Source: Bacteroidales bacterium
GTDB lineage: Bacteria; Bacteroidota; Bacteroidia; Bacteroidales; WCHB1-69
Assembly (NCBI GenBank): GCA_963556065.3
Contig: CAUVYH020000001.1
Span: forward strand, 8,446 to 72,445
Direction of reading: 5' to 3'
DNA length: 64,000 nucleotides
The notes below the pieces were generated by a model that worked only from the letters and a program-made list of their open reading frames with translations, was not told the origin of the DNA and made no database searches. Shown here piece after piece: positions 27,828 to 51,346 of the stretch; the stretch's first letter is position 1, and each line of letters begins with the position of its first letter. The translations under genes were made by a program, and so were the position numbers.

Positions 27828-27957
27828 CAAACCTTCAACAAACTTGTAATGCAAACGTAAAAAGAAGAATTCCGTCTGATAAAAAAACCAAAAACCACCT
27901 TTCGACAATTTTGAGTTTGAGTAAACGAAGAATTGCACCTCGCAATTTTATAAAAAG

Positions 27958-29400
27958 CTATTCAACCGTGATTTGTGATTCGATTATTTTTTTATTGAAG
28001 TTTTTCAAGGCTTCGTTTGGAAACTGTGATGTGCTACAACCACTTAAACAACCGCCTTTACAGGCCATGATCTCCACAAATCCCGTCGGCTTGTTAGCCG
28101 ATGTGGCGTAACTTTTCAGCAAGCGAAGACTCTTTTTATCCAAACCATCCACAAGCTGTGTCTCCGCTCCGGAATCCAGCGACTTAATGGCTTCGCACAC
28201 GCCCCCGGCTTTTGCGTAACCATGCGATAACCGGTTGCTCGAAGTCTCACAGTTATATTCGTCGGTATCTCCGATGGAAATTCCCCATCCATCCATCCAG
28301 CAAACCAGCTCTTCGAAGGTGATTACATAATCGATGAACTCCGAGTCCTGTCCTTCTTTCCGCTTGGCAACACACGGACCTACAAAAACAATCCCGTTTT
28401 CCGGCCGATTTTTTTTCGCCCACTGTGCCGTCAATTCCATGGGAGATGGCGTGTGAGAAACAAACGGCTTGATCTCCGGAATGGCTTTGTCAGCCGCCAT
28501 CATCCAGGACGGACAACAGGAGCTGGTCATAAACGGATCCCCGTTCCCTCGTCTTTCCTGCAACTCATCGCCTTCCTTGGCCGTGGTCATATCAGCCCCT
28601 AAGGCAACATTCACCACCTGATCGAACCCCAGCGCCTTTATCGCGCCAAAGACAAGGGCATCCGAAGAGGAAAACTGTCCGGAAACAGAAGGAGCGACCA
28701 GGGCCGTATATTTTACTCCTCGTTTTATCTCGTTCATCAAGGTAAAGAGTTGGGTGGTTTCGTTGATTGAACCAAAAGGACAAGCATTGATGCATTTTCC
28801 GCACAAAATACATTTTTCCTGATCGATATACTCGATTCCTTTGTCGTCTTTTCGGATCGCATTTACCGGGCAAACCTCTTCACAAGGAATTGGCATATAT
28901 ACAATTGAGTGATAAGGACATAACTCCTTGCAAATTCCACAACTCACGCATTTATCCGGATTAATTTCCGCTTTCCCCTGGCTGTTTCTGGTGATTGCTT
29001 TTTTCGGGCAATTGAGCTCGCAAGGATGGGCAATACATCCTTTACAAAGATTGGTGACAATATAGTTTGACTTCACACAGGAGGTACAAGCTTCGTCCAC
29101 CACGGTCAGAAAACGACTTGGCGTATGATTTCCGGATAATGCTTGCGCCATATATTCGGACAATGGGGTCAATTCATCGGTTTCCTCTTCGAGCCCGAAG
29201 CCCAAAAGCGCCATAATCTTATATTTTGCCACCGCCCGCTGTTTGTACTTACAGCATCGGTCGGTAGCATCTCCGGCGCGCTTACTGATTTCGATGGGGA
29301 TTCGGTCGATTAGCTGGAAAATCTGATCTTCTTTGAACAACTTCACCATACGGGTAATCAGCTCCCTGCGTATGATCATCGTGTTGTTTACAAATGCCAT
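27958..29400 (-). CDS. Monomeric [FeFe]-hydrogenase, group-B type (catalytic candidate)
   Basis: The track start at 29493 is TTG and overlaps adhE; ATG 29400 gives MAFVNNTMIIRRELITRMVKL.... Several ferredoxin-type Cys clusters (CVSCGICKELCP, CILCGKCINACP). H-cluster motifs L1 TSSCCPSW, L2 GPCVAKRKE, L3 EIMACKGGCLSG. No PAS domain. Confidence 0.85.
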   Translation of the reverse strand: MAFVNNTMIIRRELITRMVKLFKEDQIFQLIDRIPIEISKRAGDATDRCCKYKQRAVAKYKIMALLGFGLEEETDELTPLSEYMAQALSGNHTPSRFLTVVDEACTSCVKSNYIVTNLCKGCIAHPCELNCPKKAITRNSQGKAEINPDKCVSCGICKELCPYHSIVYMPIPCEEVCPVNAIRKDDKGIEYIDQEKCILCGKCINACPFGSINETTQLFTLMNEIKRGVKYTALVAPSVSGQFSSSDALVFGAIKALGFDQVVNVALGADMTTAKEGDELQERRGNGDPFMTSSCCPSWMMAADKAIPEIKPFVSHTPSPMELTAQWAKKNRPENGIVFVGPCVAKRKEGQDSEFIDYVITFEELVCWMDGWGISIGDTDEYNCETSSNRLSHGYAKAGGVCEAIKSLDSGAETQLVDGLDKKSLRLLKSYATSANKPTGFVEIMACKGGCLSGCSTSQFPNEALKNFNKKIIESQITVE

Positions 29401-29471
29401 GATTTTATGTTTTTTGAAACCCGGCTCCACCAAAAGTGATGGAACCCGGTTTGAATTATTAATACTATGTT

Positions 29472-32129
29472 TTATTGCTCTTTGCTTCCCCAAGCTTTGA
29501 TATACATCTCCTTAATCTCCCCAATGGAGGGATAGCGGGGATTAGCACCCGTGCACTGGTCATCAAAAGCCAATTCGGAGATCCTATCCAACGAAGCGAA
29601 GAACTCGTCTTTATCAACCCCGGCTTCCCGGATGGATGCCGGAATATTTACCGCAGTTTTCAATTCGGAGATGGCGTGAATCAGGTTTTCAAGTTTTTCT
29701 TCGTTGCTTTTTCCGCCAAAACCAAGGTAATCGGCCATACGGGCGTACCGTTCGATGACATTCGGGAACTTGTACTGAGGGAAGGTGGCCTGTTTGCGAG
29801 GGACATCCGTAGCATTGAAACGAATGGTCTGTTCAATCAAAAGCGCATTGGCCAATCCATGGGCAACATGAAATTCAGATCCCAACTTGTGCGCCATCGA
29901 GTGATTTACACCTAAAAAGGCATTGGCAAAAGCAATTCCTGCGAGATTGGAAGCATAGTGCATCTTTTCACGAGCCATCGGATTCTTTGCCCCTTGGTGA
30001 TAGGATGCCGGTAAATATTTGAAAATTAACCGGGCGGCTTCGAGCGCATACGGTGTCGTATATTCGGTGGCATACACCGAAACCAATGCTTCCAGCGCAT
30101 GCGTGAGGGCATCTATTCCCGACCAGGCAGCCAGCTGTTTGGGCATCGTCATCACAAAATCTGGATCGATAATGGCCATATTCGGCGTTAGCTGATAATC
30201 GGCGATTGGATATTTGATTCCGGTTTTTTCATCGGTGACCACAGCGAAAGGAGTCACTTCGGAACCCGTTCCGGATGTCGTCGGAATGGCCACCATCATC
30301 GCTTTCTTGCCCAATGAAGGAAACTGGTAGATTCGTTTGCGGATATCCATAAACCGAAGGGCCAATCCTTCAAATTCAACATCGGGGTATTCGTACATCA
30401 GCCAGATAATTTTGGCTGCATCCATGGGTGAGCCCCCGCCTAATGCGATAATCACATCCGGTTGAAAACCATTGATGGCCAAAACCCCCTTGTTGATGTT
30501 TGCCAACGTCGGATCCGGATCAATATCTTGGAATACGGCGGTTTCGATTCCCATTTTGGCAAGATACGAAATCAATTTATCGGTGTAACCTAAAGAAAAG
30601 AGGGCTTTATCAGTCACGATGAATGCTTTTTTCTTTCCCTGAAGTTCGGTTAGTGCGATGGGCAAACAGCCCGGTTTGAAAAATATTTTTGGAGGTACCT
30701 GAAGCCACAACATGTTTTCTCTTCTTTCTGCGTTCGTTTTTATATTGATCAAATGTTTAATTCCTACGTTTTCGCTCACCGAGTTACCGCCCCATGAGCC
30801 ACATCCGAGCGTAAGTGACGGATCAAGGCGGAAGTTGTAAATATCCCCGATTGCCCCTTGCGATGCCGGCATATTCACGAGCAATCTCCCGGTAGGGATC
30901 AGTCCTCCGAAAGATTCCACCCGATCGGTATTGCCGGGATTGGTGTAGAGCACCGAGGTGTGGCCAATTCCACCAAACTGCACCAGACGGATGGCTTTCA
31001 ACTCCGCTTCTTTGAATTCTTTAGCCCGATACATGGCCAGCACCGGAGAGAGTTTTTCGTAAGTAAACGGTTCGTTCTCCGATATTTCGGAAGCTTCCCC
31101 AATCAACACCTTGGCTGTTTTCGGAACCGAAACCCCGGCCATTTCCGCGATCTTCCATGCCGGTTGTCCCACGATGGCCGCATTCAGATGCCCATTGTTG
31201 ATGATGCAACGGCCGACTTTCTCTTTTTCCTCGTCATTGAGCACATACGCCCCATTGGCGATAAATTCGCGCTTCACCTCATCGTAAACCTCATCTACCA
31301 CCACGACCGATTGTTCGGACGCACAAATCATCCCGTTGTCGAACGTTTTGCTCATCAAAACAGAGCACACCGCCATCTTAAGATTTGCCGTTTCATCGAT
31401 GATGGCCGGGGTATTGCCGGCCCCCACACCAATGGCGGGAATGCCTGAAGAATAGGCGGCTTTAACCATTCCCGGGCCGCCGGTGGCTAAAATCAGGTTG
31501 ATGCTTTTGTGATGCATCAGAAATTGGGAAAGTTCAACCGTCGGGTTTTCAATCCAGCCAATGATATCCGCAGGAGCTCCCGCGGCCACCGCCGCATTCA
31601 AAACAATACGAGCCGCTTCAATGGTTGATTTTTGAGCTTTGGGATGTGGGGAGAAGATAATCCCGTTCCGGGTTTTTAAGCTGATTAATGCTTTAAAAAT
31701 GGTCGTTGATGTTGGGTTTGTGGTTGGAACAATCCCTGCAATAAGGCCAATGGGTTCTGCAAATTTACGAATACCGTATGTCTGATCATCTTCAATCAAT
31801 CCGCAGGTTTGCTCATCTTTATATTTGTTGTAGATGTATTCCGAAGCAAAGTGGTTTTTTATCACTTTATCCTCTACAATTCCCATCCCGGTTTCTTCCA
31901 CGGCCATTTTTGCTAGATGAATTCGTTGTCCGGCGGCCGCAAATGCGGCTTTGGCAAAGATCTCATCCACCTGTTTCTGCGAAAATGTACGAAATACTTT
32001 CTGGGCACGCACCACCCGTTGTATCATCTGTTCCACTTTTTCAATCTCCGGATTTGCATAGGTTACGGATTCTATCGTTTGGTTTTTTTCTTGAATTTCA
32101 GAACCTTCTATATTTTTCTTAGCACTCAT
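29472..32129 (-). CDS. adhE: Bifunctional acetaldehyde-CoA / alcohol dehydrogenase
   Basis: 885 aa. N-terminal ALDH domain (NGMICASEQS catalytic Cys) and C-terminal Fe-ADH domain (GGGSPMDAAK, HSMAHKLG, HGLANALL). Confidence 0.95.
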   Translation of the reverse strand: MSAKKNIEGSEIQEKNQTIESVTYANPEIEKVEQMIQRVVRAQKVFRTFSQKQVDEIFAKAAFAAAGQRIHLAKMAVEETGMGIVEDKVIKNHFASEYIYNKYKDEQTCGLIEDDQTYGIRKFAEPIGLIAGIVPTTNPTSTTIFKALISLKTRNGIIFSPHPKAQKSTIEAARIVLNAAVAAGAPADIIGWIENPTVELSQFLMHHKSINLILATGGPGMVKAAYSSGIPAIGVGAGNTPAIIDETANLKMAVCSVLMSKTFDNGMICASEQSVVVVDEVYDEVKREFIANGAYVLNDEEKEKVGRCIINNGHLNAAIVGQPAWKIAEMAGVSVPKTAKVLIGEASEISENEPFTYEKLSPVLAMYRAKEFKEAELKAIRLVQFGGIGHTSVLYTNPGNTDRVESFGGLIPTGRLLVNMPASQGAIGDIYNFRLDPSLTLGCGSWGGNSVSENVGIKHLINIKTNAERRENMLWLQVPPKIFFKPGCLPIALTELQGKKKAFIVTDKALFSLGYTDKLISYLAKMGIETAVFQDIDPDPTLANINKGVLAINGFQPDVIIALGGGSPMDAAKIIWLMYEYPDVEFEGLALRFMDIRKRIYQFPSLGKKAMMVAIPTTSGTGSEVTPFAVVTDEKTGIKYPIADYQLTPNMAIIDPDFVMTMPKQLAAWSGIDALTHALEALVSVYATEYTTPYALEAARLIFKYLPASYHQGAKNPMAREKMHYASNLAGIAFANAFLGVNHSMAHKLGSEFHVAHGLANALLIEQTIRFNATDVPRKQATFPQYKFPNVIERYARMADYLGFGGKSNEEKLENLIHAISELKTAVNIPASIREAGVDKDEFFASLDRISELAFDDQCTGANPRYPSIGEIKEMYIKAWGSKEQ

Positions 32130-32154
32130 TTCAGTAATTTTTTAGGATTTAAGA

Positions 32155-32415
32155 CTATAATTTTTCCAACATGTCAATGATCTTTTGCACACTGGCTTCG
32201 CTCATCAGCGTTCCGTTGATTTCGGCATACGGCGGTTTCGGGTCTTCGCCTAGTTCGTTGCAACCCAGGCAAACGGAAGCTTCCACGGTTACTTTTTGCG
32301 CCAACTGTGGAGGAAGCTTGGTTTTGAGTTCGCGGAGTTCGTGCCCACCCATTACATAACAATAGGTTCCTACGCAGATCTTGATTTTGATTGGATTTTC
32401 GGTTTTCTTTTCCAT
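32155..32415 (-). CDS. Thioredoxin-like [2Fe-2S] ferredoxin (NuoE/HndA-like), variant Cys spacing
   Basis: 86 aa. Cys pattern C-x4-C-x29-C-x2-C (ICVGTYC ... CLGC). 15 nt after the PP2C gene and 25 nt before adhE. Confidence 0.75.
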   Translation of the reverse strand: MEKKTENPIKIKICVGTYCYVMGGHELRELKTKLPPQLAQKVTVEASVCLGCNELGEDPKPPYAEINGTLMSEASVQKIIDMLEKL

Positions 32416-32430
32416 AATCTTCTTGGTTTT

Positions 32431-33627
32431 TTAGATATAGGTTATTTTTACTTTTTTTAAATATTTTTCTTCCAGTAATTGGGCAATTCGTTTAACCACA
32501 TTTCTCCTGATTTCGAGCTCTACCGGTAAACAGGGATCCTGATGCGCTTCGTTGATGCGGGTTCCGATCACCAAATCAATCACATCGGATGTGGAAATCA
32601 GATTATAAAGCTGAATGGCGGGATTGCTTGAGTGTATAGATTTTAAACTCTTTTTATCGAGCAATTCACTCAACGAGCCAAGGGTAAGAATCCCTTCGGT
32701 AACCAGATCCACACCAACCATCGTCCCCGACGGCGGCAATTCAAAATCGGGAGCATCCATATTGATGATGATTTCCTGATTGAGTTCGCGTGCAATGATT
32801 GAAGAGGTGGTTCCGCCACAGATGACCTTTTTCCCATTATAAGTCCTAACGATTTCAGCGAGTTCCATATCGTTGGTTTTGTTATACGGGGGTCCCGAGC
32901 AGATAAGCAAACAACGTGGCCGGCGCATGTATATCACCGCACAGGTGGTGTCGTCTTTCGCCTTATTGTTATCATTTATAAGCGATTGATCAACTATCTG
33001 TTGAGCCAATTCGTGCGCGGAGATATGGGGCTTTTTTTGCAATATTTTTTCAACAAACTCAACAATTCCGGATTCTTCCCATCCGAAGGGGTACTCTTTT
33101 TGCCCGATTCCCGACTGGTTTACGCCGTCGCTATAAAAGATCAGCCGGTCGCCTTCCTGCATTTTAAAATTGGAGAGTCGGATCTTTTTTTGAATGTGAT
33201 CGGTTTCGATATCGAGGCTCTTTTTCTCTATTTGAATCGGATTGCCCTTACGGAAATAGACAAACGGAGGATTGTCATATTCCGCCATCTCGGTGTTTCC
33301 CTGTCTGTCGATATCTACAATGGTAAAGGTCGCATAGCTGATGTTCCGTTTGCTGTCCACCGGCAGTGTTTGCATGATCATGGTTGCCGAGCGCAGTACC
33401 GGCTCGAGCCGTTGGCGATAGTTGAGTGCCATGGAAGCCGTCATTGTGCTTAACACACTGGCTTTGATTCCGCTGCCGAGACCATCCGAAAGCACCGAGA
33501 CAAATCGGTTTTTGCCATCCACCATTTTGGTCAGAAAAGCATCTCCGCAAACCAGATTCCCGTGTTTGTTGATTTGTGAAAATCCTATTTCCACAAAAGT
33601 GCTTTCTTTATTGATCGGGCTCATCAT
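32431..33627 (-). CDS. PP2C/SpoIIE-family serine phosphatase with an uncharacterised ~160-aa C-terminal domain
   Basis: GDAF...VLSDGLGSGIKASV...FYSDGV...KDDTTCAVI metal-binding motifs. Its ATG is 1 nt after the HydS-like stop codon. Confidence 0.85.
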   Translation of the reverse strand: MMSPINKESTFVEIGFSQINKHGNLVCGDAFLTKMVDGKNRFVSVLSDGLGSGIKASVLSTMTASMALNYRQRLEPVLRSATMIMQTLPVDSKRNISYATFTIVDIDRQGNTEMAEYDNPPFVYFRKGNPIQIEKKSLDIETDHIQKKIRLSNFKMQEGDRLIFYSDGVNQSGIGQKEYPFGWEESGIVEFVEKILQKKPHISAHELAQQIVDQSLINDNNKAKDDTTCAVIYMRRPRCLLICSGPPYNKTNDMELAEIVRTYNGKKVICGGTTSSIIARELNQEIIINMDAPDFELPPSGTMVGVDLVTEGILTLGSLSELLDKKSLKSIHSSNPAIQLYNLISTSDVIDLVIGTRINEAHQDPCLPVELEIRRNVVKRIAQLLEEKYLKKVKITYI

Positions 33628-33628
33628 T

Positions 33629-35383
33629 TTAGTGAGAATTTAATTCATTGTCGATATTCAAGGGCTTTTTTTGATCGTGCGACTCCAAGATAGAATTCAG
33701 CATCGATTCGGTAAAGGAGGAGTTCTCTCCCAGCAGGTAAGCAATGCGCTGAACCGCTTCGAGATTTTGTTTGATCACCTCGTGAATACGGCCGGTCATG
33801 AGCTCATGCTGGACTTCCGGCTCCGACATATCCCGGACAATGGCACAGGCCAGTCGGTATTGCAAAATATTGACAATGGTAATGTGATAAAACTTTTCCC
33901 CTTCGCGCAAATCGTGTTCAATCAGCTCTGCCTCTCCCAAAAAGATGGCGTCGAAGAACTTTTCGAACGAAATGTAGGGCCGGATATCCGTTCCCTGAAT
34001 CCCTTTTTCACTCTCAAAGATGGTATTAAACGGCTTCCCGGCGGCTTCGGCAAATTTTTGGTTGCAATCCACCACGTGGAATCGTTCGTCCACCATCACC
34101 ACCCCGTACGGCATTTTTTGCAACAACACCGAAGCCTTATCCTGAGCCACTTTCCTCATGTACGACACACACATGATCCGGTTTGCTTTCCCATCGAGTA
34201 ATGCTTGCGCAAACTCCCGGCAATTATCGTAACCGCATCCGGCACAATTCAGTTCATCCTTTTTGGAAAACTTTCCCAAGCCATGCATGATTTCAGTAAT
34301 CTCATCTTCGGGATAAACACATTGAATCACCGGCAACAACGAATATTGCTCGGAAAGTTCCGCCCTCGTCATTTTTCGTTCAGCCGTTATCTCCGATGTT
34401 TTTTTGCTTTGCTGCGCATATTTTTCGATTTTCAGTTTATGAAGCAACGGGGTTTTGTTTGTTACCGCCGGACCGTTGATGCATCCACCATTACAAGCCA
34501 ACAGTTCTAAAAATATTTTCTCGGAAACGTTGCTTTCGTCTAACTCTTCGATAATTGATTTCACGCTTTTCATTCCGGAAAAACTGTATGATTTTACCTT
34601 TGCATCCCCCAGTTCTTGATTGATTCCGGTTACCATTCCGCCCTCAATTGGATATAACAGCGGAGCTTCTTCCAATTCGCTTGCGGTTAAGCCGAAGTTG
34701 CGATCCGGTTCAAATGATTCAAAATCAATTCGACTCTCTTCGAACCATTCCAAGAGTTCGGTATAGGTCAAGGCCGCATCAATCGCTGATTTATGATAAA
34801 TCATTTCCTGTTTTTTGGCCACGCAAGGTCCGATGAACGCGATAAAAGCATTTTCGCCATACTCCTTGCGAAGCAAACGGGCATGCGCTTCCACTGGCGA
34901 AACCACCGGTATGATGCTTGAAGCCAACTGCGGGTGATATTTGACAATTAGATTAACCACGACCGGACAGCAACTGGAAATATGGATGTTTTTCGTGGAA
35001 TTTCGGACGTAATCGGCTGAAAACCGGGTAACCAGTTCCGCCCCAACGGCCGTTTCCTCAACTACAGAGAACCCCAGATTATAAAGCGCTTTAAACATCG
35101 TTGCTTTTTGAACACTTCCAAATGAGCTCACCCAAGAAGGGGCAAGCGAGGCAATCATTTTTTTGCCTTGTTTCAACGCTAATTTCACCGACGGCAAATC
35201 GGCTCTGTAATGTTTCGCCTTTGCCGGACAAGCCCCCAAGCATTTTCCACAATAAATACACAAATCTTCAATTACGGAGGCGCTGTTATCCTCTATTTTG
35301 ATGGCTTTTACCGGACATTCGCGAATACAACGGTAACAATCCACACAATTGTTTTTTTCGGTGTAAATTACGGAGCGATTCAT
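33629..35383 (-). CDS. HydS-like putative sensory [FeFe]-hydrogenase (2x[4Fe-4S] + H-domain + extra Cys4 motif + PAS)
   Basis: CVDCYRCIRECP and CIYCGKCLGACP. H-cluster motifs ISSCCP, GPCVAKKQE and ELLACNGGCINGP (L2 Met replaced by Gly, L3 Met replaced by Leu). CAGCGYDNC-x16-C (Cx2Cx4Cx16C). C-terminal PAS-like region (GVVMVDERFHVVDCNQKFAEAAG). Confidence 0.85.
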   Translation of the reverse strand: MNRSVIYTEKNNCVDCYRCIRECPVKAIKIEDNSASVIEDLCIYCGKCLGACPAKAKHYRADLPSVKLALKQGKKMIASLAPSWVSSFGSVQKATMFKALYNLGFSVVEETAVGAELVTRFSADYVRNSTKNIHISSCCPVVVNLIVKYHPQLASSIIPVVSPVEAHARLLRKEYGENAFIAFIGPCVAKKQEMIYHKSAIDAALTYTELLEWFEESRIDFESFEPDRNFGLTASELEEAPLLYPIEGGMVTGINQELGDAKVKSYSFSGMKSVKSIIEELDESNVSEKIFLELLACNGGCINGPAVTNKTPLLHKLKIEKYAQQSKKTSEITAERKMTRAELSEQYSLLPVIQCVYPEDEITEIMHGLGKFSKKDELNCAGCGYDNCREFAQALLDGKANRIMCVSYMRKVAQDKASVLLQKMPYGVVMVDERFHVVDCNQKFAEAAGKPFNTIFESEKGIQGTDIRPYISFEKFFDAIFLGEAELIEHDLREGEKFYHITIVNILQYRLACAIVRDMSEPEVQHELMTGRIHEVIKQNLEAVQRIAYLLGENSSFTESMLNSILESHDQKKPLNIDNELNSH

Positions 35384-35386
35384 GGC

Positions 35387-35644
35387 TTAGGCTTTTAGGA
35401 TTGAAAAATGAGAGTCCAGCAAGGATTCAATCATATCGGGATTCACGTGATAATAGGCCTTCCCGGCAATTGCAATGACGGGACCGTTAATACAGTCTCC
35501 AGCACACAGATGACCCCGAAAATCAATCTCTGCTTTCAGTTGGTGCTCCTCAATATAGGCCTTCATGATTTCAAGCACCCGGTCGTTCCCTCTTGCGAAA
35601 CAAGAGCTGCCCAAACATATTCGAATTTCAATTGTCGTTTTCAT
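35387..35644 (-). CDS. Thioredoxin-like [2Fe-2S] ferredoxin (HfsA/NuoE-like)
   Basis: ATG 35644 gives MKTTIEIRICLGSSC.... Cys pattern C-x4-C-x31-C-x3-C. Its stop is 3 nt before the HydS-like ATG. Confidence 0.8.
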   Translation of the reverse strand: MKTTIEIRICLGSSCFARGNDRVLEIMKAYIEEHQLKAEIDFRGHLCAGDCINGPVIAIAGKAYYHVNPDMIESLLDSHFSILKA

Positions 35645-35651
35645 CTTTTTA

Positions 35652-35669
35652 TTGTTATTTGTTTCACAA
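35652..35669. promoter_or_regulatory. Rex-box-like palindrome in the leader of the Fd-HydS operon
   Basis: TTGTTAT-TTGT-TTCACAA compared with the Rex consensus TTGTGAA-N4-TTCACAA (Clostridial variant TTGTTAA-N4-TTAACAA). Lies 8-25 nt upstream of ATG 35644. Confidence 0.35.
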
Positions 35670-35682
35670 CTGATCAACCTTA

Positions 35683-35699
35683 AGCCAAAGAACATGCCA
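35683..35699 (-). promoter_or_regulatory. Candidate sigma-54 (-24/-12) promoter of the Fd-HydS-PP2C-Fd-AdhE-hydrogenase operon
   Basis: Minus strand 5'-TGGCATGTTCTTTGGCT-3' compared with TGGCAC-N5-TTGCW. GG and TTG are correctly spaced, but the -12 C is G. Lies 55 nt upstream of the ATG. No TAnnTTTG box was seen in this intergenic region. Confidence 0.4.
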
Positions 35700-35863
35700 T
35701 ATAGTATATATTATTGATTTACTGTTTGTTACATCCATTTTTAGGAAACATTAAATCCATTAAGTGTCATATTTCAATACAGTTTTTAATCCGGTAATGT
35801 TCACAAATAGTACAGTGGTAGATATTAGGACATTTTGACAGATAAACAAATCATACCCGAAAG

Positions 35864-35891
35864 CAAAAAAGCCACCGGAATAAACCAATGG
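35864..35891 (-). terminator. Rho-independent terminator after the first operon
   Basis: Minus strand CCAUUGG-UUUAUU-CCGGUGG (7 bp including 2 G.U) followed by CUUUUUUG. Lies 62 nt after the stop of the 35953..36201 ferredoxin. Confidence 0.5.
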
Positions 35892-35952
35892 ACTTTTAGG
35901 GATCAGAACTTAAACAACAATTCTTTTTGTGGGATAAACGAACGGAGAACAC

Positions 35953-36201
35953 TTACCGGGAGAGGTGTTTGTCGAGCAACGGAACCACCTCTTCCGGCGA
36001 TACTTTTTCGCAGCGAACGCCATTGATAACAATCACGGGGCCTTTCATGCAAAGGCAGGTACATAATATCCCCTTCACTTCCAAGGAGACTTCCAACGGG
36101 TTGGTCTCCGCATATTTCCGGATGATTTCCAGATTGTGATTGTTTCCTCTGGCATAACATGAGCTTCCCATGCAAACCACCACGTTGTTTGATGCAGACA
36201 T
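35953..36201 (-). CDS. Thioredoxin-like [2Fe-2S] ferredoxin
   Basis: ATG 36201 gives MSASNNVVVCMGSSC.... Cys pattern C-x4-C-x31-C-x-C-x-C. Starts 1 nt after the Rex-like stop codon. Confidence 0.75.
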   Translation of the reverse strand: MSASNNVVVCMGSSCYARGNNHNLEIIRKYAETNPLEVSLEVKGILCTCLCMKGPVIVINGVRCEKVSPEEVVPLLDKHLSR

Positions 36202-36202
36202 G

Positions 36203-36856
36203 TTACACGAGTTGATTTTTGATTTGTTCCATCGACTTGATGAGATCATTCGGGTTTAAAATCGGCGTATTGATCATTGTCAGACCCTCTGGGAAATTCA
36301 TAATAGGCTTGGCCAGATTCCAAACCAGTTTCACCCCATGCTCCGACATCTGCAAAACCAGTTTTTTGGCAACATCAAGGTCAACGAAAGGAGCAATTAT
36401 TGCCCGTTCAATGTGTAATCTCTCTGTTAAATCCGTGATTTTAGAAATCGGATTAATAATAAAATCCGCTCCCATTTTTGGATTTTCGGAAGCACTATTG
36501 TCAAAAAAAGCGGAGATTGTCAAATCAATATTGGCCTCTATTTGGGCTTTATTCTGAATGTACCAGGCAATGTTCCCAATATATATAAACTCGTTCTCAT
36601 GATTAAACCCCAATAGTTTTTCGATACTATCGATCATGAACTGCGTGTTTGTAATCCCCAATACCGGATCAATGGCTGCGGTGTATAACAAATCGTCGAG
36701 AACCATCTGCTTTGTATAGCTCAGCTCCTCGGCAATCCGTTCGGCAGAGACATAACTGCGATTTTGTAATATGGCAAATCTTAAAAAATTCAGATAAGCC
36801 CTCATTCTCCTCAAGGTTGGAAGAGGTATTGCTTCATGACTTTTTTTCGTTTTCAT
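36203..36856 (-). CDS. Divergent Rex-like (winged-helix + Rossmann-like) putative redox-responsive regulator
   Basis: ATG 36856 gives MKTKKSHEAIPLPTLRRMRAYLNFLRF...VSAERIAEEL..., which is collinear with the Rex N-terminus (IP.AT.KRLPLYYR.L...VSS.ELA). The Rossmann GxGxxG position reads IYIGNIAWY. The C-terminus (VWNLAKPIMNFPEGLTMINTPIL) resembles Rex ILNFAP..L.VP..V.V. Confidence 0.55.
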   Translation of the reverse strand: MKTKKSHEAIPLPTLRRMRAYLNFLRFAILQNRSYVSAERIAEELSYTKQMVLDDLLYTAAIDPVLGITNTQFMIDSIEKLLGFNHENEFIYIGNIAWYIQNKAQIEANIDLTISAFFDNSASENPKMGADFIINPISKITDLTERLHIERAIIAPFVDLDVAKKLVLQMSEHGVKLVWNLAKPIMNFPEGLTMINTPILNPNDLIKSMEQIKNQLV

Positions 36857-38247
36857 CGGATTTAATATTAGGTTTCTTAATATACTGATCGATTGCATCC
36901 GCTGCTTTTTTACCCGCACCCATGGCCAGAATAACGGTTGCCGCACCGGTCACCACATCCCCTCCTGCAAACACCCCGCGCCGGGAAGAGTTGCCGTCTT
37001 CATCGGCAACCAGGCATCCATGAGCATTGGTGATCATCCCTGGCGTCGTATTGCTGATCAAGGGGTTGGGTGTGGTACCGAGCGACATGATCACGGTATC
37101 CGCTTCAATTTCGAATTCGGAATCGGGCTTGATCACCGGTTTTCTTCGTCCAGATTCATCGGGCGATCCCAGTTCCATCTGAATGCAGTGAATGGATTTC
37201 ACCCAGCCTTGTTCCGTCCCCTCGATGGATGTAGGATTCGACAAGAATTGAAATTTAATCCCTTCCTCTTTGGCATGATGAACCTCTTCTTTGCGAGCCG
37301 GCAATTCCTCTTCGGAACGACGATACACCACACTGGTCTCCGCCCCCAGTCGTCGGGCTGTCCGAGCCGCATCCATGGCCACGTTTCCACCACCGACCAC
37401 CACCACTCTCCGTCCGGTGAAAATCGGGGTGTCATAACCATGATCATACGCCCTTCATGAGATTGTTCCGGGTCAGGAACTCATTGGCGGAAACCACGCC
37501 GTTCAGGTTTTCCCCAGGAATGTTCATAAACTTGGGCAACCCTGCGCCACTGGCCACATATACCGCTGAATACCCTTCTTCCTTTAATAGCTGGTCAATG
37601 GTGATTGTTTTACCAATAACCACATCTTTTTCGATGATCACCCCCAAATTTGTGATGTTCTTGATTTCATGCTTTACCACCGTATCTTTCGGGAGTCTGA
37701 ATTCCGGAATTCCATATTGCAAGACACCACCGGCTTTATGCAAGGCTTCGAAGATCTTTACCGAATATCCTTTTTTGGCCAAATCGCCGGCACAGCTCAA
37801 TCCCGAAGGCCCGCTTCCGATAACCGCGACTTTATAACCATTCGGCTGAATGGCTTCGGACAGATTCAACGGATGTTCTCGAGCCCAATCGCCAATAAAC
37901 CGTTCCAGTTTTCCGATTGCGACCGGTTCCCCTTTTCGTCCCAGAATGCAGTCTCCCTCACATTGGATTTCTTGCGGACATACTCTGCCACAAATAGCAG
38001 GCAAGGCGGAGTCACGGGCAATTACCCGGGCCGCCTGTTCAAAGTTTCCGGTTTTTATGTGCGCGATAAATTCGGGAATATTAATGGAGACGGGGCATTT
38101 GGAAACACACAGCGGCTTTTTGCAGTTCAGGCAACGCGAGGCTTCAGCAATCGCTTCCTCTTGGTTGTATCCCAAGCTCACCTCGTCAAAGTTCTTCACC
38201 CTTATTTCGGGGGACTGTTCCCGGCAGGGAATCCTGTTTTTATTCAT
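36834..38247 (-). pseudogene. NfnB / SudA / GltD-like NADPH-dependent oxidoreductase (glutamate synthase small-chain family), split by a 1-nt homopolymer insertion
   Basis: Track ORFs 37444..38247 and 36834..37406 are two halves of one gene. The N-terminal half has two Cys clusters (CLNCKKPLCVSKCP, CGRVCP...CEGDC) and GSGPSGLSCAG. Removing one G from the GGG run (plus-strand CCC 37451-37453) reads ...[36 protein letters not shown]..., for about 470 aa in total. Confidence 0.85.
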
Positions 38248-39130
38248 GACTAACTCCTCCTATATGGCAAATATGACCTTCCATCAGCTCTGCAAATTCA
38301 ATCGCTTTTCGCCCTTCAATGGTTTTGTACATATTCTGACGCCGCATGGCTTCCTCGTAATTGATCAAATGGGCATCGAACTCCGGCCCATCAATACAGG
38401 TGAATTTGGTTTGTCCGCCAACCGTCACCCGGCAGGCTCCGCACATTCCCGTGCCGTCCACCATCAACGAATTCAAACTGGCGATGGTCGGAATATTGAA
38501 CTTTTGGGTCATCATGGCCACATATTTCATCATAATCATCGGTCCAATGGTGATCACCCGAGAGTAGTTGATTTCAAGGCGAAGCAAACGTTCCAGAATG
38601 TGGGTCACCAGCCCTTTTTCACCATACGAACCGTCATCGGTACAGACAAAGACTCGATTCGCATGTTGGCTTAACTCCTTCAGCAGCACAAGATTCTGAG
38701 CCGATTTTGCGCCGATAATCAAATCCGCTTTAACCCCTTTTTCAAGATGCAGCCACTTGAGCTGCGGCAATATTGGAGCCACGCCAACCCCGCCGGCGAC
38801 AAAAAGCAACTTCTCCTGTTTGAACCGATCATCGCTCCAGTGAATAAAATCAGAGGGGCATCCGAGGGGACCGGTAAAGTCCATGAAATAGTCACCAACT
38901 TCGAATTGCGCCATTTTTTGGGAAGACATGCCCACCACCTGAAAGACAATGGTCACAGATCCGGTTTCTTTATCGTAATCCACAATGGTTAGAGGGATCC
39001 GCTCCCCTTTCTCGTCGGGGATCACGATGATAAATTCTCCAGGATTGGCGCTTCGGGCGATTCTTGGCGCCTCAATTTCCATCAGGAAGATGTCTGGAGA
39101 TAATACCTCTTTTTTCAATATTTTGAACAT
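38240..39130 (-). CDS. NfnA / SudB-like FAD/NAD(P)-binding [2Fe-2S] subunit (sulfide/dihydroorotate dehydrogenase-like)
   Basis: ATG 39130 gives MFKILKKEVLSPDIFLMEIEAP.... FNR-like fold (GERIPLTIVDY, LLFVAGGVGVAPI). C-terminal Cys cluster GMCGACRV...C. Overlaps the GltD-like gene by 8 nt. Confidence 0.85.
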   Translation of the reverse strand: MFKILKKEVLSPDIFLMEIEAPRIARSANPGEFIIVIPDEKGERIPLTIVDYDKETGSVTIVFQVVGMSSQKMAQFEVGDYFMDFTGPLGCPSDFIHWSDDRFKQEKLLFVAGGVGVAPILPQLKWLHLEKGVKADLIIGAKSAQNLVLLKELSQHANRVFVCTDDGSYGEKGLVTHILERLLRLEINYSRVITIGPMIMMKYVAMMTQKFNIPTIASLNSLMVDGTGMCGACRVTVGGQTKFTCIDGPEFDAHLINYEEAMRRQNMYKTIEGRKAIEFAELMEGHICHIGGVSHE

Positions 39131-39197
39131 CGCTGTACTTTTTAAAAAAAAGCACCGGATTCCAAGGAGCATGGAACCCGACACTTTCGGGGATTAA

Positions 39198-40364
39198 TTA
39201 GAAGTCAACTTTTGTACCGTAATAAATACTGGTCAGGACTTGTTTCATCTCTTCAACCGAAGTCGGCCTTGGATTTGAGCCGGTACAAGCATCAGCCACG
39301 GCATTTTCTGCAATATAATTCAGGTTTTCCTTAAAATCACTTTCGGTAATGCCATACTCTTTCAAGGATAGAGGAATATCCAACTGCAAGTTCAATTTCT
39401 TGATGCTGGCTACCAACGCCTTGGTAAGTTCCATATCGGTTTCACCTTTCAAATTGAGCATGCGGGCGATTTTCGCAAACCGGTCGGCACATACTTTTGA
39501 ATTGAACTCGATGACATACGGCAGATAAATGGCATTGGCACATCCGTGAGGAATGTGGAAGATCGCCCCGGTTTTGTGAGCCAAGCTGTGAACAATTCCC
39601 AGCAACGCGTTGGAAAAAGCCATACCTGCCAAACATTGGGCAATATGCATCTGGGCACGGGCCTGGTTATCACCGGCATACGATTTTATGAGATTATCAT
39701 AAATCATGTCGATGGCATGCATGGCCAAAGGATCGGAAAAATCGGAATGCAAGCCGGCCACATACGCTTCAATGGCATGGGTAAGCGCATCCATCCCGGT
39801 ATGGGCGGTCAGCTGTTGGGGCATCGTTTCCGCCAGTTTGGGATCTACAATGGCGATATCCGGCGTGATGTTGAAATCGGCCAACGGATATTTTATTCTG
39901 AGCTTATAATCGGTGATCACCGAAAAGGCTGTGACTTCCGTAGCCGTGCCACTCGTGGACGGAATCGCCACAAAACGGGCTTTCTGCCTCAATTCGGGTA
40001 AGTTGAACGGGATAACGGCTTCCTGGAAGGTGAACTCCGGATATTCGTAAAAAATCCACATGGCCTTGGCGGCATCAATTGGAGAGCCTCCGCCCATGGA
40101 GACGATCCAATCGGGCTGGAACTTACGCATCGCTTCCGCTCCGCGCATCACGGTTTCTACGGATGGATCGGGTTCCACTCCTTCAAAAAGTTCAACTTCC
40201 ATTCCGGCTTCCTTCAAATAATTTACGGCCTGGTCTAAAAATCCGAAACGTTTCATCGATCCGCCCCCGACAACGAGGATTGCTTTTTTTCCTTTTAGGT
40301 TTTTCAATTCTGCGAGACTTCCTTCTCCGAAGTAAATGTCTCTGGGTAATGTAAATCTTGACAT
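39198..40364 (-). CDS. Iron-containing (group III) alcohol dehydrogenase, butanol/1,2-propanediol dehydrogenase-like
   Basis: ATG 40364 gives MSRFTLPRDIYFGEGSL.... Motifs GGGSPIDAAK, HTGMDALTHAIEAY, HSLAHKTG...HGCANAI. Confidence 0.9.
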   Translation of the reverse strand: MSRFTLPRDIYFGEGSLAELKNLKGKKAILVVGGGSMKRFGFLDQAVNYLKEAGMEVELFEGVEPDPSVETVMRGAEAMRKFQPDWIVSMGGGSPIDAAKAMWIFYEYPEFTFQEAVIPFNLPELRQKARFVAIPSTSGTATEVTAFSVITDYKLRIKYPLADFNITPDIAIVDPKLAETMPQQLTAHTGMDALTHAIEAYVAGLHSDFSDPLAMHAIDMIYDNLIKSYAGDNQARAQMHIAQCLAGMAFSNALLGIVHSLAHKTGAIFHIPHGCANAIYLPYVIEFNSKVCADRFAKIARMLNLKGETDMELTKALVASIKKLNLQLDIPLSLKEYGITESDFKENLNYIAENAVADACTGSNPRPTSVEEMKQVLTSIYYGTKVDF

Positions 40365-40400
40365 ATTCTTTTTTTTAATTTGTTGTTTGGGAATCCATAA

Positions 40401-40417
40401 AGTCAATCGCCATGCCA
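40401..40417 (-). promoter_or_regulatory. Candidate sigma-54 (-24/-12) promoter of the ADH-Nfn-Rex-like-Fd operon
   Basis: Minus strand 5'-TGGCATGGCGATTGACT-3'. It shares the TGGCATG-N4-TTGRCT pattern with 35683..35699. Lies 53 nt upstream of ATG 40364. The -12 C is A. Confidence 0.4.
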
Positions 40418-40423
40418 CAGATT

Positions 40424-40446
40424 GTATCACACTGTATTTGTGATAC
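40424..40446. promoter_or_regulatory. Inverted repeat GTATCACA-N7-TGTGATAC (candidate operator/UAS)
   Basis: Perfect 8-bp arms read directly from the sequence. Lies 7 nt upstream of the sigma-54-like element and downstream of the sigmaA-type promoter candidate. Confidence 0.35.
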
Positions 40447-40459
40447 TTACAAAGATTAG

Positions 40460-40492
40460 CAAATTTACATGTGTTATATATTAGGACACAAA
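40460..40492 (-). promoter_or_regulatory. Bacteroidetes sigmaA-type promoter candidate (TTTG-N21-TAAATTTG)
   Basis: On the minus strand, TTTG is at 40492-40489 and TAAATTTG at 40467-40460, matching the -33 TTTG / -7 TAnnTTTG consensus. This is an alternative to the sigma-54 model for the ADH operon. Confidence 0.4.
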
Positions 40493-40536
40493 ACAAAAAG
40501 AACACTGTCCCGGAATAAGACAGTGTTCTTTTTTAT
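40491..40536. terminator. Strong bidirectional Rho-independent terminator after the sigma-54 activator gene
   Basis: AAGAACACTGTC-CCGGAATAA-GACAGTGTTCTT (12-bp perfect stem) flanked by A-rich and T-rich runs on both sides. Confidence 0.75.
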
Positions 40537-40572
40537 GACAACATAAAGATGGATGTAGGAATTCCGAATCGG

Positions 40573-42498
40573 CTATTCTATGGGAATATCATATTTCTTC
40601 ACCTTGAGATAAAGTGTATTTCGGCTGATTCCGAGACTTTTGGCCACCTTGCTCATGTTTTTTTCGCAGAGTTGTATGGCTTCGGCAATCGCTTGTTTTT
40701 CGAGATCTTCGAGGGTTACCACCCGATTTTTCGCGATACGGGGTGTATCTTCAGCAATTTCATGTTGAATCACAATGGGTTGGGCATGAATGCTCATGTC
40801 GGAAATATGCTCATCGAAACGCAGTTTTCCGTTCAGGTTCACCGCTTTCTCCACAAAGTTTTCGAGTTCTCGGATATTTCCAGGCCATTCGTACTCCTTC
40901 ATGCTTTTGATCATGTCGGGAGGCAACGAAATCGGCACCCGGTTGAGTTTTTTGGCTTTATGAACGAGGAAAAACGAAATCAGATCCTCCACATCCTCAG
41001 GGCGTTCCCGCAAAGGAGGCAGGACGATCGGGATCACGCTCAGCCGGTAAAACAGGTCGAGCCGGAAATTCCCTTTTTCGATCTCCTCCTTGAGATTCTT
41101 ATTGGTTGCGGCAATAATCCGGACATCCACCGGAATCACCTTGTTGCCGCCTACACGAGTGATGACGCCTTCCTGGAGCACCCGCAATATCCGCACTTGC
41201 ATATCAACCGGCATCTCCCCGATTTCATCCAGGAAAAGGGTTCCCTTGTTGGCAAGTTCAAATTTCCCGGCTTTTCCCCCTTTTCTGGCTCCGGTAAACG
41301 CCCCTTCGTCGTATCCGAACAGCTCGCTCTCGATGAGCGTTGGAGGAATGGCGCCGCAGTTGATGGCCACAAATCCGTTGTTCACCCTGTTGCTGGCATT
41401 ATGGATAGCTTGGGCAAGCACCTCTTTTCCCGTGCCGCTTTCGCCCGTGATCAAGATGGTGGAAGGACTGTCGGATATGCTTCGGGCGTATTCCTTCACC
41501 CACCGGATTTCCTTGCTGCGCCCGATAATATCGTCGAAAGTATAGTGGGCGTGCATCCCGGTGTATTTGTTCACCAGATTGAAAATCGCCCCAATCTCCT
41601 TAAACGTCACCAGCAACCCATACAGCTCCTGATCGTTTTTTTTGAGCGGATAGGCGTTCACGTTAAACTTCTCCGGCTTGCCGTTGACTTTGATCAGGAG
41701 TTCCACATCTCTTCCCATCTGACCGCTGATGATTTTATCGCGCATATTCTTCCAATCCGGAATCAGATCCGAGATGTCCTTTTGGATCAATAACTCCTTG
41801 GGACATTGGAGCATTTTTGACGCCGCCTCATTCATCCGCTTGATATTCCCCGTAAGATCCGTACTGATGATTCCGGAGGAAATCGTGTTCATCACCGCAT
41901 ACACATAATCATAGGCCTCTTCAATCCGTTGATGGATGGTTTCGGTGCGCATTTCGCTCTCAATCGCCTTCACCGCCGAAACCACCAGTCCGAGGGTATG
42001 GGGATGGACATCCTCGCTTTTTCCGGTAAGATTCAACGTCCCCAGCAGTTGCCCCCTGAAATCATGGATTGGCGCCGCCGAGCAGGTCAAGGTTTGATAT
42101 GCCGAGATAAAATGCTCCGAAGCCGTGATCTGAACTGGGGCGTCTTCGCTGATGGCCGTTCCCATGGCATTGGTCCCCACGTTGTCTTCGCTCATCTGGG
42201 AGCCGATGGTGATTTTTATCTTCTTCGCCTCCGCCACCACTTCGTCGTCGCCATAAATCAGCAACAGCACTCCATCCCGATCCGTAAGGGCGATCAAGTA
42301 ACCGCTTCCCTTCAAAAAGGTGTACAATTCGGAAATATGAGGCTTCACCGTTTCAATCAACGCTTTATTCCGGATCAAGATCTGCTGCAAATCAGTGCCT
42401 TCAAAATTCGTTTTTGAATAAAGCCTGTTTTGTATCACCCCAAACTGCTTGCTTCGTAGATGCGATTGTTCAATAATATCGTCATGTTCATTCACCAT
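40573..42498 (-). CDS. Sigma-54-dependent transcriptional activator (GAF-PAS-AAA+-Fis HTH; AcoR/AdhR-like)
   Basis: Walker A GESGTGKE, the sigma-54 contact loop GAFTGA, Walker B LFLDEIGE, R-finger region, and C-terminal HTH NMSKVAKSLGISRNTLYLKVKKY. The N-terminal ~300 aa is GAF- and PAS-like. Confidence 0.92.
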   Translation of the reverse strand: MVNEHDDIIEQSHLRSKQFGVIQNRLYSKTNFEGTDLQQILIRNKALIETVKPHISELYTFLKGSGYLIALTDRDGVLLLIYGDDEVVAEAKKIKITIGSQMSEDNVGTNAMGTAISEDAPVQITASEHFISAYQTLTCSAAPIHDFRGQLLGTLNLTGKSEDVHPHTLGLVVSAVKAIESEMRTETIHQRIEEAYDYVYAVMNTISSGIISTDLTGNIKRMNEAASKMLQCPKELLIQKDISDLIPDWKNMRDKIISGQMGRDVELLIKVNGKPEKFNVNAYPLKKNDQELYGLLVTFKEIGAIFNLVNKYTGMHAHYTFDDIIGRSKEIRWVKEYARSISDSPSTILITGESGTGKEVLAQAIHNASNRVNNGFVAINCGAIPPTLIESELFGYDEGAFTGARKGGKAGKFELANKGTLFLDEIGEMPVDMQVRILRVLQEGVITRVGGNKVIPVDVRIIAATNKNLKEEIEKGNFRLDLFYRLSVIPIVLPPLRERPEDVEDLISFFLVHKAKKLNRVPISLPPDMIKSMKEYEWPGNIRELENFVEKAVNLNGKLRFDEHISDMSIHAQPIVIQHEIAEDTPRIAKNRVVTLEDLEKQAIAEAIQLCEKNMSKVAKSLGISRNTLYLKVKKYDIPIE

Positions 42499-42778
42499 AA
42501 CCCTCGTTGATTTTTTTGCAAAATTACACTCTTTTCACCACAATAAACACCCGATGCCGCTTTTAGTTTATTTCTTTGGGATCAACGAAAAGGATTGGAC
42601 GTTTTTGTGCAAATAATTGCAGATCATTCCATAACATTTCAGACTTTTATTTATTCAAAATTATTGTTGTCCGATAAAAAAGTTTAGTTTTAAAGCTGAG
42701 CAGTGTTTTGCTTTGTTCTAAACTTTTTCTTGGTCAATGATACTTTTGTCATTGCCACAAAAGTATCCAAAAAGGCTA

Positions 42779-51253: not shown

Positions 51254-51346
51254 ATTGTGTTAATTTTGAGAAGTTCACCCCAATAAATTCAGAATAAACA
51301 TTTTTTAAGTTGTCAGTCTGAGTTTATCGAAGACCTTTCTGTTAAT

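Follow-up and report, generated by a model that had tools for sequence, protein, structure and literature searches.

We analysed a stretch of 64,000 nt (the window) from a Bacteroidales bacterium, contig CAUVYH020000001.1 of assembly GCA_963556065.3 (positions 8,446-72,445, forward strand), in which a HydS-type [FeFe]-hydrogenase is encoded next to a PP2C-family phosphatase. All genes from 27.9 to 42.5 kb of the window lie on the minus strand. Read in the direction of transcription, they encode a sigma-54 enhancer-binding protein, an iron-containing alcohol dehydrogenase (Fe-ADH), an NfnA-like protein, an NfnB/GltA-like protein (present as two open reading frames, ORFs), a Rex-like protein and a small ferredoxin. 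After a gap of 257 nt there follows the module with which this report is concerned: a ferredoxin (102-aa ORF), HydS (584 aa), the phosphatase (398 aa), another ferredoxin (86 aa), AdhE (885 aa) and a group B1 hydrogenase, HydA. As judged from its sequence, the locus is a Bacteroidales copy of the phosphatase-linked group C3 (hfs or HydS type) module that has been described in other bacteria. We took advantage of a JGI metagenome contig with precomputed Pfam labels (L001), which is 91.4% identical to the window at the DNA level across this island; its gene order is the same as that of the island, and its labels agree with our assignments.

The first gene of the module (35387..35695, minus strand, as are all genes of the island) encodes a thioredoxin-like [2Fe-2S] ferredoxin, recognised by PF01257 (E=1.5e-10) and by a Cx4C...Cx3C pattern. 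Translation probably begins at the ATG at 35644, which gives a protein of 85 aa and matches the lengths of its homologues (81-100 aa). HydS (33629..35383) was assigned from Pfam matches, its H-cluster ligands and a PAS fold, and the phosphatase (32431..33627) from PF07228 (E=2.2e-15). The 86-aa ferredoxin (32155..32415) is likewise thioredoxin-like and of the [2Fe-2S] type, with a match to PF01257 (E=5.5e-5) that is under the Pfam cut-off. AdhE, the bifunctional aldehyde/alcohol dehydrogenase (29472..32129; Aldedh and Fe-ADH domains), is placed between the phosphatase and 86-aa ferredoxin on one side and the group B hydrogenase on the other. That hydrogenase is monomeric (27958..29493, probable start near 29400) and scores 462 bits against TIGR04105, FeFe_hydrog_B1, where the cut-off is 450. 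The island thus holds three paralogous thioredoxin-like [2Fe-2S] ferredoxins within 4 kb: before HydS, before AdhE and HydA, and after the Rex-like gene.

A preliminary description of this DNA had proposed that the ferredoxin, HydS and phosphatase genes are translationally coupled. The junctions bear this out: the ferredoxin and HydS genes meet at TAA-GCC-ATG (...GCC TAA GCC ATG), a spacing of 3 nt, and the HydS and phosphatase genes meet at TAA-A-ATG (...CAC TAA A ATG), a spacing of 1 nt. The same description had confined the module to these three genes; the triad stands, but the module runs further, through the 86-aa ferredoxin and AdhE into the group B hydrogenase, to position 27958.

We next compared the module across genomes. 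In a collection with one genome per species, relatives that carry the C-terminal domain (CTD) of the phosphatase were confirmed in at least 558 stretches, and the best 80 loci, from at least seven phyla (Bacteroidota, Desulfobacterota, Spirochaetota, Hydrogenedentes, Verrucomicrobia, Riflebacteria and Ignavibacteria), were examined for gene order. In 75 of the 80, the gene directly upstream of the phosphatase is HydS, and in 71 a homologous small ferredoxin (81-100 aa) is encoded upstream of HydS. The distance from the HydS stop to the phosphatase start has a median of -1 nt, and falls between -20 and +10 in 58 of the 75 pairs. Shared by 71-75 of the 80 loci, which come from different species, the arrangement of the triad is non-random and far beyond chance. 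What follows the triad is more variable. A group-B-like HydA is found downstream of the phosphatase, as in the window, in 23 loci; in about 20 the downstream genes are a pair of an 86-aa-type ferredoxin and the group B hydrogenase, with the ferredoxin directly before the hydrogenase. A HydABC-type hydrogenase is divergently encoded upstream in 28 loci. The module therefore adjoins whichever hydrogenase, group B or HydABC, it would regulate. AdhE was counted downstream in one of the 80 loci, and its insertion as in the window is seen in L001 and L004 only. Complete genomes with the module include OY781965.2, OY781463.1 and OZ245940.1; among culturable Bacteroidota, Tenuifilum thalassicum has a HydS homologue and Carboxylicivirga has the locus L056.

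The same protein architecture, in which the phosphatase carries the CTD, is also present in Thermotogota, Clostridia, Fusobacteriota, Chloroflexota, Planctomycetota and Cyanobacteria. In Anaerocolumna and Thermohalobacter (L083 and L084) the genes stand in the plain order of ferredoxin, PAS-containing HydS, phosphatase and group B HydA. In Thermotoga sp. KOL6 (L082:6074-8004) the group B gene is upstream of the sensor, not downstream; the HydS homologue there is only 475 aa long and comes after an unassigned 167-aa gene.

Two other observations were made in these loci. A metagenome-assembled genome of Riflebacteria (L047:12227-15123) has a second HydS-phosphatase pair, divergent at 31% and 28% identity, directly after the first set of ferredoxin, HydS, phosphatase, ferredoxin and group B HydA. 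In the loci that face a HydABC hydrogenase (L018, L020, L030, L031 and about 25 others; approximately positions 100-2800, minus strand), a protein of about 650 aa, 31-35% identical to HydS, follows HydA, and a stand-alone receiver domain of 131 aa is present near the HydABC-side end in 34 loci. The 650-aa protein and the receiver may be a second, different signalling pair linked to hydrogenase.

The identity of the 584-aa protein is supported by its motifs, by the fold of its PAS domain and by the adjacent phosphatase, as the preliminary description had anticipated in calling it a HydS-type, phosphatase-linked member of group C. HydDB defines group C3 as "phosphatase-linked (putative)" (PMC5037454); our assignment to C3 is made from motifs and from the phosphatase linkage, rather than by HydDB placement. 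NCBIfam has no model for group C, and the best match of HydS there is to B1, at 201 bits against a cut-off of 450. The two ferredoxin-type clusters that had been proposed are present as N-terminal Cx2Cx2Cx3C motifs, CVDCYRCIRECP at residue 13 and CIYCGKCLGACP at residue 42, and Fer4 families match this region. The H-domain matches PF02906 (E=2e-49), with L1 reading SSCCP (residues 136-140), L2 reading GPC (185-187) and L3 reading ELLAC (293-297).

To compare residues we used an L-INS-i alignment of CpI, 57 HydS relatives and the window's group B HydA; the CpI sequence was checked against the PDB and is identical over residues 229-574. The H-cluster ligands (C300, C355, C499 and C503 in CpI numbering) correspond to C139, C187, C297 and C301 of HydS, and are invariant in all 57 relatives. 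The equivalents of K358, E361 and P324 are likewise invariant across the family (57/57 for K358 and E361). Since the four ligands and these three positions do not vary, we consider the H-cluster site to be kept in the HydS family.

The preliminary description had drawn attention to the deviations in L2 and L3. Both are present as described, yet neither marks a sensor. The catalytic group B HydA of the window also has glycine at the M353 position (GPC in L2), so GPC is not diagnostic of sensing, and the M497 position in L3 is methionine in 31 and leucine in 26 of the 57 relatives, in keeping with ELLAC being a local sequence variant. The proton-transfer residues are a different matter. In HydS, E279, E282, R286 and S319 are replaced by S122, Y125, S129 and I158, and the canonical residues are never found at those positions in the HydS family, whereas the group B HydA encoded 4 kb downstream keeps E279, E282, R286, C299 and S319. 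This contrast between two proteins of one locus is the best argument from sequence that HydS is a slow, sensor-type enzyme. The equivalent of C299 is retained in HydS as C138; among the relatives this position is cysteine in 34 and alanine in 22 of 57.

Towards the C-terminus, the extra Cx2Cx4Cx16C motif (CAGCGYDNC...C) noticed earlier is formed by C380, C383, C388 and C405, which are invariant in 57 of 57 relatives, and the region matches PF04060 (E=2.7e-8). A PAS domain had also been proposed to follow. The window protein scores 19.4 bits with PAS_8, short of the cut-off of 21.8, but 40 of the 57 family members do match, and the predicted structure has a PAS fold: the AlphaFold model of residues 365-584 gave 88 PDB matches at E<=1e-3, those listed being PAS domains or sensor proteins that contain one (Aer2, PYP, NifL, FixL and LOV kinases among them), with E-values down to 5e-6 and template modelling scores (TM, normalised to the target) of 0.53-0.65 against stand-alone PAS domains. 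After the PAS core the model predicts a long helix with the strongly conserved sequence VQ.IAYLLGEN..TESMLNSI; as modelled, it is similar to the signalling helices found after the PAS domains of sensor kinases.

The phosphatase consists of a catalytic part (residues 1-235, with the SpoIIE domain of PF07228 at residues 40-232) and the CTD of 163 aa (32434..32922). The solved structures nearest to the phosphatase domain are RsbX (3w40, E=8.6e-6) and SpoIIE. We counted residue conservation over 116 relatives; the metal-binding aspartates D29, D48, D167, D225 and D226 are kept in 111-114 of the 116, and an active phosphatase is therefore to be expected from the sequence. The full-length protein has more than 7,700 relatives in the database; among those listed, most are about 398 aa long and the named ones are from Bacteroidales.

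The CTD was called unassigned in the preliminary description, and the term holds, because searches of Pfam, NCBIfam and PDB sequences and profiles were all empty. The domain has no Pfam match at E<=10, no NCBIfam match and no PDB sequence match by phmmer; a profile of 30 CTD sequences against all PDB sequences had HIV protease as its best match, at chance level (E=0.09). It is nevertheless well defined as a family, with the signature GPP...CGGTT..R...PP...TEG..T...G..N...QDP..P. A search with it returned 828 clusters (50% identity); in the 150 top clusters listed, nearly all full-length proteins are of about 390 aa with the CTD at the C-terminal end. Structural modelling, a step that had been proposed for this domain, was carried out with AlphaFold2 and predicted a Rossmann-like alpha/beta sandwich (mean pLDDT confidence score 86.9); a fold search with this model gave generic Rossmann-like matches with TM no higher than 0.47 (best about 0.42-0.47).

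One of these matches deserves mention. Foldseek aligned the CTD with methylglyoxal synthase (MGS; 1vmd_A) at a probability of 1.00, E=3e-3 and TM 0.42, a level that many generic Rossmann folds reach as well, and by eye the MGS motifs GTTG, SEG and N..PHDP recall the CTD motifs GGTT, TEG and N..HQDP. At the level of sequence, hhalign gave a probability of 5.5% for similarity to MGS (PF02142; P=0.007 over 46 columns), MGS was absent from the PDB profile search with the CTD and from the Pfam matches at E<=10, and the catalytic His and Asp residues of MGS are not conserved. We take the resemblance as a weak lead and not as a classification. The conserved polar positions of the CTD (T273, T274, R280, E311, T315, D348, N359 and R374) suggest a binding site.

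The CTD also appears to be the more constrained part of the protein. Median identity to the window protein is 53% for the CTD and 40% for the catalytic domain, in sets that were picked by CTD similarity, which biases this comparison. Four of 35 diverse cluster representatives (P0253, P0257, P0272 and P0303) have lost two to five of the metal-binding aspartates, and their CTDs are still 42-48% identical to that of the window; these four are possible pseudophosphatases, going by their sequences. Because the CTD is better conserved, is kept where the aspartates have decayed and is found almost only in fusion with PP2C, one could propose that the CTD, not the catalytic domain, is the essential signalling part of the partner protein of HydS. 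We think this quite unlikely. If it were true, sensory [FeFe]-hydrogenases would signal by way of an output or ligand-binding domain that is new in kind. The CTD might then bind a phosphorylated metabolite, as its weak MGS-like features hint, with no dedicated kinase, and H2 level and carbon flux would be integrated in a single protein.

Phosphatases of the RsbX, SpoIIE and RsbU type share with the window phosphatase their catalytic fold and metal-binding aspartate motifs. Unlike them, the window protein has no STAS or kinase gene in cis, has its regulatory domain at the C-terminus, with an unassigned fold that differs from theirs, and has a hydrogenase as its obligatory partner. The preliminary description had remarked on the lack of such a partner nearby, and we found the same. 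No gene for a STAS, HATPase or Ser/Thr-kinase protein lies within 10 kb on either side, according to the precomputed Pfam labels of L001 (91% identical), and no STAS or kinase gene was seen among 20 further ORFs of the window, the largest window ORFs being viewed by eye only. Clustering of the unassigned neighbour ORFs in the 10-kb flanks of the 80 loci revealed no recurrent kinase or STAS family. The neighbour families that do recur include NuoF/NuoE-type hydrogenase subunits, the stand-alone receiver, NUDIX, metallophosphoesterase and M48-like proteins. Since no partner recurs in the 80 loci, to be an "orphan" is a property of the whole phosphatase family and not of this copy. Two cis partners of HydS are invariant, the small ferredoxin of the [2Fe-2S] type and the PP2C phosphatase with its undescribed CTD, and no kinase travels along.

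A HATPase gene was met in one other context. In Anaerocolumna (L083:11886-13958), a 427-aa hydrogenase-like gene that has no PAS domain (Fe_hyd_lg_C plus FeS) is beside a gene for a 141-aa HATPase_c_2 protein (RsbW-like) and one for an unassigned 116-aa protein, all upstream of HydABC-like genes. The same kinase-linked arrangement has been described for TamHydS, the HydS of Thermoanaerobacter mathranii.

One of the nearest described counterparts of the module is the hfsABCD cluster of Thermoanaerobacterium saccharolyticum, which encodes HfsA, the PAS-containing hydrogenase HfsB, the serine phosphatase HfsC and the HydA2-like hydrogenase HfsD (PMC11837493). We compared it by its published description, in which HfsA is the small first gene. 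The order is the same in the window: a small first gene, a PAS-containing [FeFe]-hydrogenase, a PP2C phosphatase and a group B hydrogenase on one strand. The window differs in the extra ferredoxin and the adhE gene inserted between phosphatase and group B hydrogenase, and in its host, a member of the Bacteroidales. Going by sequence, the window's group B HydA is the catalytic, ferredoxin-dependent counterpart of HfsD/HydA2. Firmicute relatives (Anaerocolumna and Thermohalobacter) share with the window the phosphatase-CTD protein of about 390 aa, although the window CTD is only 35-39% identical to the firmicute and Thermotoga versions. The functional link to adhE and ethanol is another common feature (PMC5707799). 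In T. saccharolyticum, deletion of hfsA or hfsB gives a higher ethanol yield, with adhE transcript 2-3-fold up; the high-ethanol phenotype requires intact hfsC and hfsD, and deletion of hfsB only raised the measured hydrogenase activity (PMC5707799). The hfs genes have also been reported as essential for this species to produce H2 (PMC8924675).

A second counterpart is found in Ruminococcus albus 7. The published account describes an eight-gene cluster that encodes AdhE and a ferredoxin-only hydrogenase as well as a PAS-containing group C hydrogenase and a Ser/Thr phosphatase (PMC6776011), and another report mentions an adjacent Ser/Thr kinase (PMC5707799). This hydS-hydA2-adhE cluster matches the window in gene content, including regulatory elements, and in both adhE is inside the unit; the catalytic partner is classed as group A1 in R. 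albus (PMC6776011) and as B1 in the window. Expression of the R. albus cluster was 111-fold lower in co-culture with an H2 consumer, i.e. when H2 was kept low (PMC6776011). Because the layout equals that of the known hfsABCD and R. albus clusters, the novelty implied by the preliminary description was too high, and we regard the window locus as an ordinary member of a module type that has already been described. It does give the H2/ethanol switch described in Clostridia a Bacteroidales counterpart, in an order in which group B hydrogenases are the main producers of H2 in the gut (PMC12578642).

The two putative sensors that have been characterised biochemically, TmHydS of Thermotoga maritima and TamHydS, share with the window HydS the two N-terminal [4Fe-4S] sites, the H-domain and the Cx2Cx4Cx16C motif; the replacement of M353 by glycine and the PAS domain are as in TmHydS, and that of M497 by leucine is as in TamHydS (PMC8163306). 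The characterised HydS enzymes have very low activity (PMC11376134), for which the loss of C299 is cited as a reason in TmHydS and TamHydS (PMC8163306; PMC8924675). The window HydS differs from both at this position, because C138 is retained. C299 has been reported as not conserved in subclasses M2e and M2f (PMC8163306), those of TmHydS and TamHydS, a statement that is a reported tendency of subclasses and no formal criterion. More distantly, the HoxBC-HoxJ-HoxA system of Cupriavidus necator, as outlined in PMC5707799, follows the same logic, in which a slow hydrogenase and a PAS-type module lead to a phosphorylation output on hydrogenase genes. It differs in having a [NiFe] site and a histidine kinase with response regulator as output, and its proteins are not homologous to those of the window.

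Taken with these precedents, the locus is likely to be an hfs-type unit, responsive to H2 (or to redox state), that has been built into a fermentation operon. The observations behind this proposal are the domain content, the conservation of ligand and catalytic residues, the tight coupling of the genes and the recurrence of the triad across phyla; the link between H2 and expression, and the genetic dependence that runs from HfsB through HfsC and HfsD to adhE, would hold here by analogy with the homologues in the literature. HydS would bind an H-cluster and, lacking most of the proton relay, would turn over slowly and report on H2 rather than produce it in bulk, with the small [2Fe-2S] ferredoxin encoded upstream as its dedicated redox partner. 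Its redox state would be passed through the four-cysteine region, the PAS domain and the long C-terminal helix, and would alter the activity of the co-translated phosphatase; we infer a physical contact between the two proteins for this step, and some role for the CTD. The phosphatase would dephosphorylate a protein, presumably a Ser/Thr-phosphoprotein encoded elsewhere, and thereby shift the expression and/or activity of the AdhE and the ferredoxin-dependent group B hydrogenase of the operon. As to direction, high H2 would presumably divert reducing equivalents to ethanol. A Rex-type operator before the operon would add control by NADH/NAD+.

Several points weigh against this proposal. C299, whose absence is argued to account for slow turnover, is retained here and in 34 of 57 relatives. 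The window HydS and its Bacteroidota homologues are known from sequences and models, not from biochemistry. The terminator, promoter and Rex-box calls in the region are consensus matches only. Finally, the output step has no support from gene context: neither a substrate nor a kinase or STAS protein is encoded close to the module in the window, and the 80 loci show none that recurs.

The retention of C299, together with that of all H-cluster ligands, would also suit a quite different role, in which HydS is a working catalytic subunit of a multi-subunit H2-producing enzyme, together with the ferredoxins and the group B HydA, and the phosphatase merely regulates that enzyme. Ferredoxin genes do flank HydS, and the reported need for hfs genes in H2 production by T. 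saccharolyticum points the same way (PMC8924675). We think this improbable: four of the five proton-pathway residues are lost in HydS while all five are kept in the adjacent HydA, deletion of hfsB alone raised hydrogenase activity (PMC5707799), characterised HydS proteins have very low activity (PMC11376134), and a PAS domain with an obligatory phosphatase partner is typical of signalling proteins. If HydS is a sensor, as we prefer, it might still read the redox poise of ferredoxin or NAD(P)H and not H2, with electrons arriving through the [2Fe-2S] ferredoxin and the N-terminal clusters and the H-cluster acting as a vent or reference. The near-universal ferredoxin partner (71/80 loci), the redox genes that surround the locus (NfnAB-like, Rex-like and alcohol dehydrogenases), and the published suggestion that the PAS domain of HfsB may respond to the redox potential (PMC11837493) are all consistent with such a role. 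It is nonetheless rather unlikely, as the strict conservation of the H-cluster site is hard to explain unless H2 is the ligand, and regulation in R. albus tracks the H2 level (PMC6776011).

For the output of the sensor, we weighed two candidate substrates. The preliminary description had named the sigma-54 activator and the Rex-like protein as candidates in cis. Both genes share the strand of the module and lie no more than 7 kb away, there is a Rex-type operator in front of the module, and the Rex-like protein has lost part of its GxGxxG motif and might need another input. Neither gene is a conserved neighbour of the module, however (5/80 and 3/80 loci, respectively), no -24/-12 promoter was found, and the relatives of known structure that come closest to the phosphatase domain have phospho-STAS proteins as their substrates; we consider a substrate of this kind very improbable. 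Those same relatives, RsbX and SpoIIE, instead suggest a classical partner-switching phosphatase, with its STAS substrate and an RsbW-type kinase encoded elsewhere in the genome. The Ser/Thr kinase that PMC5707799 places next to the R. albus cluster, and the 141-aa HATPase_c_2 protein beside the PAS-less hydrogenase-like gene of Anaerocolumna, favour this. Such modules are usually clustered, and none was seen in the window or recurring in the 10-kb flanks of the 80 loci, so that partner switching seems to us a tentative possibility, short of probable. How putative sensory [FeFe]-hydrogenases pass on their signal is an open question (PMC11376134), and as of 2026 finding the interaction partners of these sensors has been called critical (PMC13104023). 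The question is general to the family, and the window locus, as one of many, gives no special handle on its answer.

The region upstream of the module contains candidate regulatory signals. A terminator-like hairpin lies in the 257-nt gap (35872..35891, minus strand) and suggests that the genes from the first ferredoxin through HydA form a transcription unit of their own. A palindrome resembling a Rex operator, TTGTGAAACAAATAACAA (35652..35669), is located 8-25 nt upstream of the probable ferredoxin start, and is one of only two matches with at most two mismatches in the 64-kb window. Of 71 related loci, 25 have a site resembling TTGTTA-N6-TAACAA upstream of their ferredoxin gene, where 0.036 would be expected per 360 nt; this enrichment is overstated, since the motif is rich in A and T and the background consists for the most part of coding DNA. 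A search for sigma-54 (-24/-12) promoters (TGGCAC-N5-TTGCW) gave 24 matches where 27.7 are expected, with none in the relevant gaps. A second terminator-like hairpin, with a 17-bp stem, follows the sigma-54 activator gene (40533-40495, minus strand).

The Rex-like gene itself (36203..36946; probable start 36856, 217 aa) scores 77 bits against the NCBIfam Rex models, whose cut-offs are at least 126. In an alignment with Rex 5zz5 (E=2e-6), the glycine motif for dinucleotide binding, GAGNIG, is shortened to GNIA in this protein, which may therefore have lost the usual mode of NADH sensing. A Rex-like gene is present in three of the 80 loci; a Rex gene is reportedly part of the R. albus cluster as well, in work by Zheng from 2014. 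The third thioredoxin-like [2Fe-2S] ferredoxin (35953..36249; a 98-aa ORF with probable start 36201; PF01257 E=7.7e-8) abuts the Rex-like gene, and its counterpart in L001 is called as 82 aa, 2 nt after the called end of the Rex-like gene. Further upstream are the NfnA-like gene (38240..39184; Pfam and NCBIfam matches), the iron-containing alcohol dehydrogenase (39198..40505, probable start 40364; NCBIfam and L001 labels) and the sigma-54 enhancer-binding protein (40573..42498; GAF-PAS-AAA+-HTH by Pfam and L001 labels), which is found upstream on the same strand in five of the 80 loci.

Between the NfnA-like and Rex-like genes, the NfnB/GltA-like gene is interrupted and reads as two ORFs, one of 267 aa (37444..38247) and one of 190 aa (36834..37406). 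It is intact in L001 (453 aa), and the break in the window, at about 37406-37444, coincides with two 1-nt insertions within approximately 10 nt relative to L001. The split gene is either a pseudogene or the product of a sequencing error.

The island (approximately 27900-42500) has a GC content of 0.43-0.48, compared with 0.33-0.38 in its flanks, which code mostly for lipoproteins and hypothetical proteins. We considered horizontal transfer as the source of this difference and set it aside as unnecessary, given partial synteny in other Bacteroidales (L002, L004 and L008), which speaks against recent acquisition from a foreign source, and given that conserved enzyme genes are in general richer in GC. 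No hydE, hydF or hydG maturase gene was recognised when the translations of the window were viewed by eye. Judged in the same way, a SufB/C/D-like cluster for Fe-S assembly is located at 49856-53740 (minus strand), about 8 kb from the island, and a TPR/LytS-type histidine kinase is encoded together with a LytTR response regulator at 2753-5576 (plus strand), about 25 kb away.

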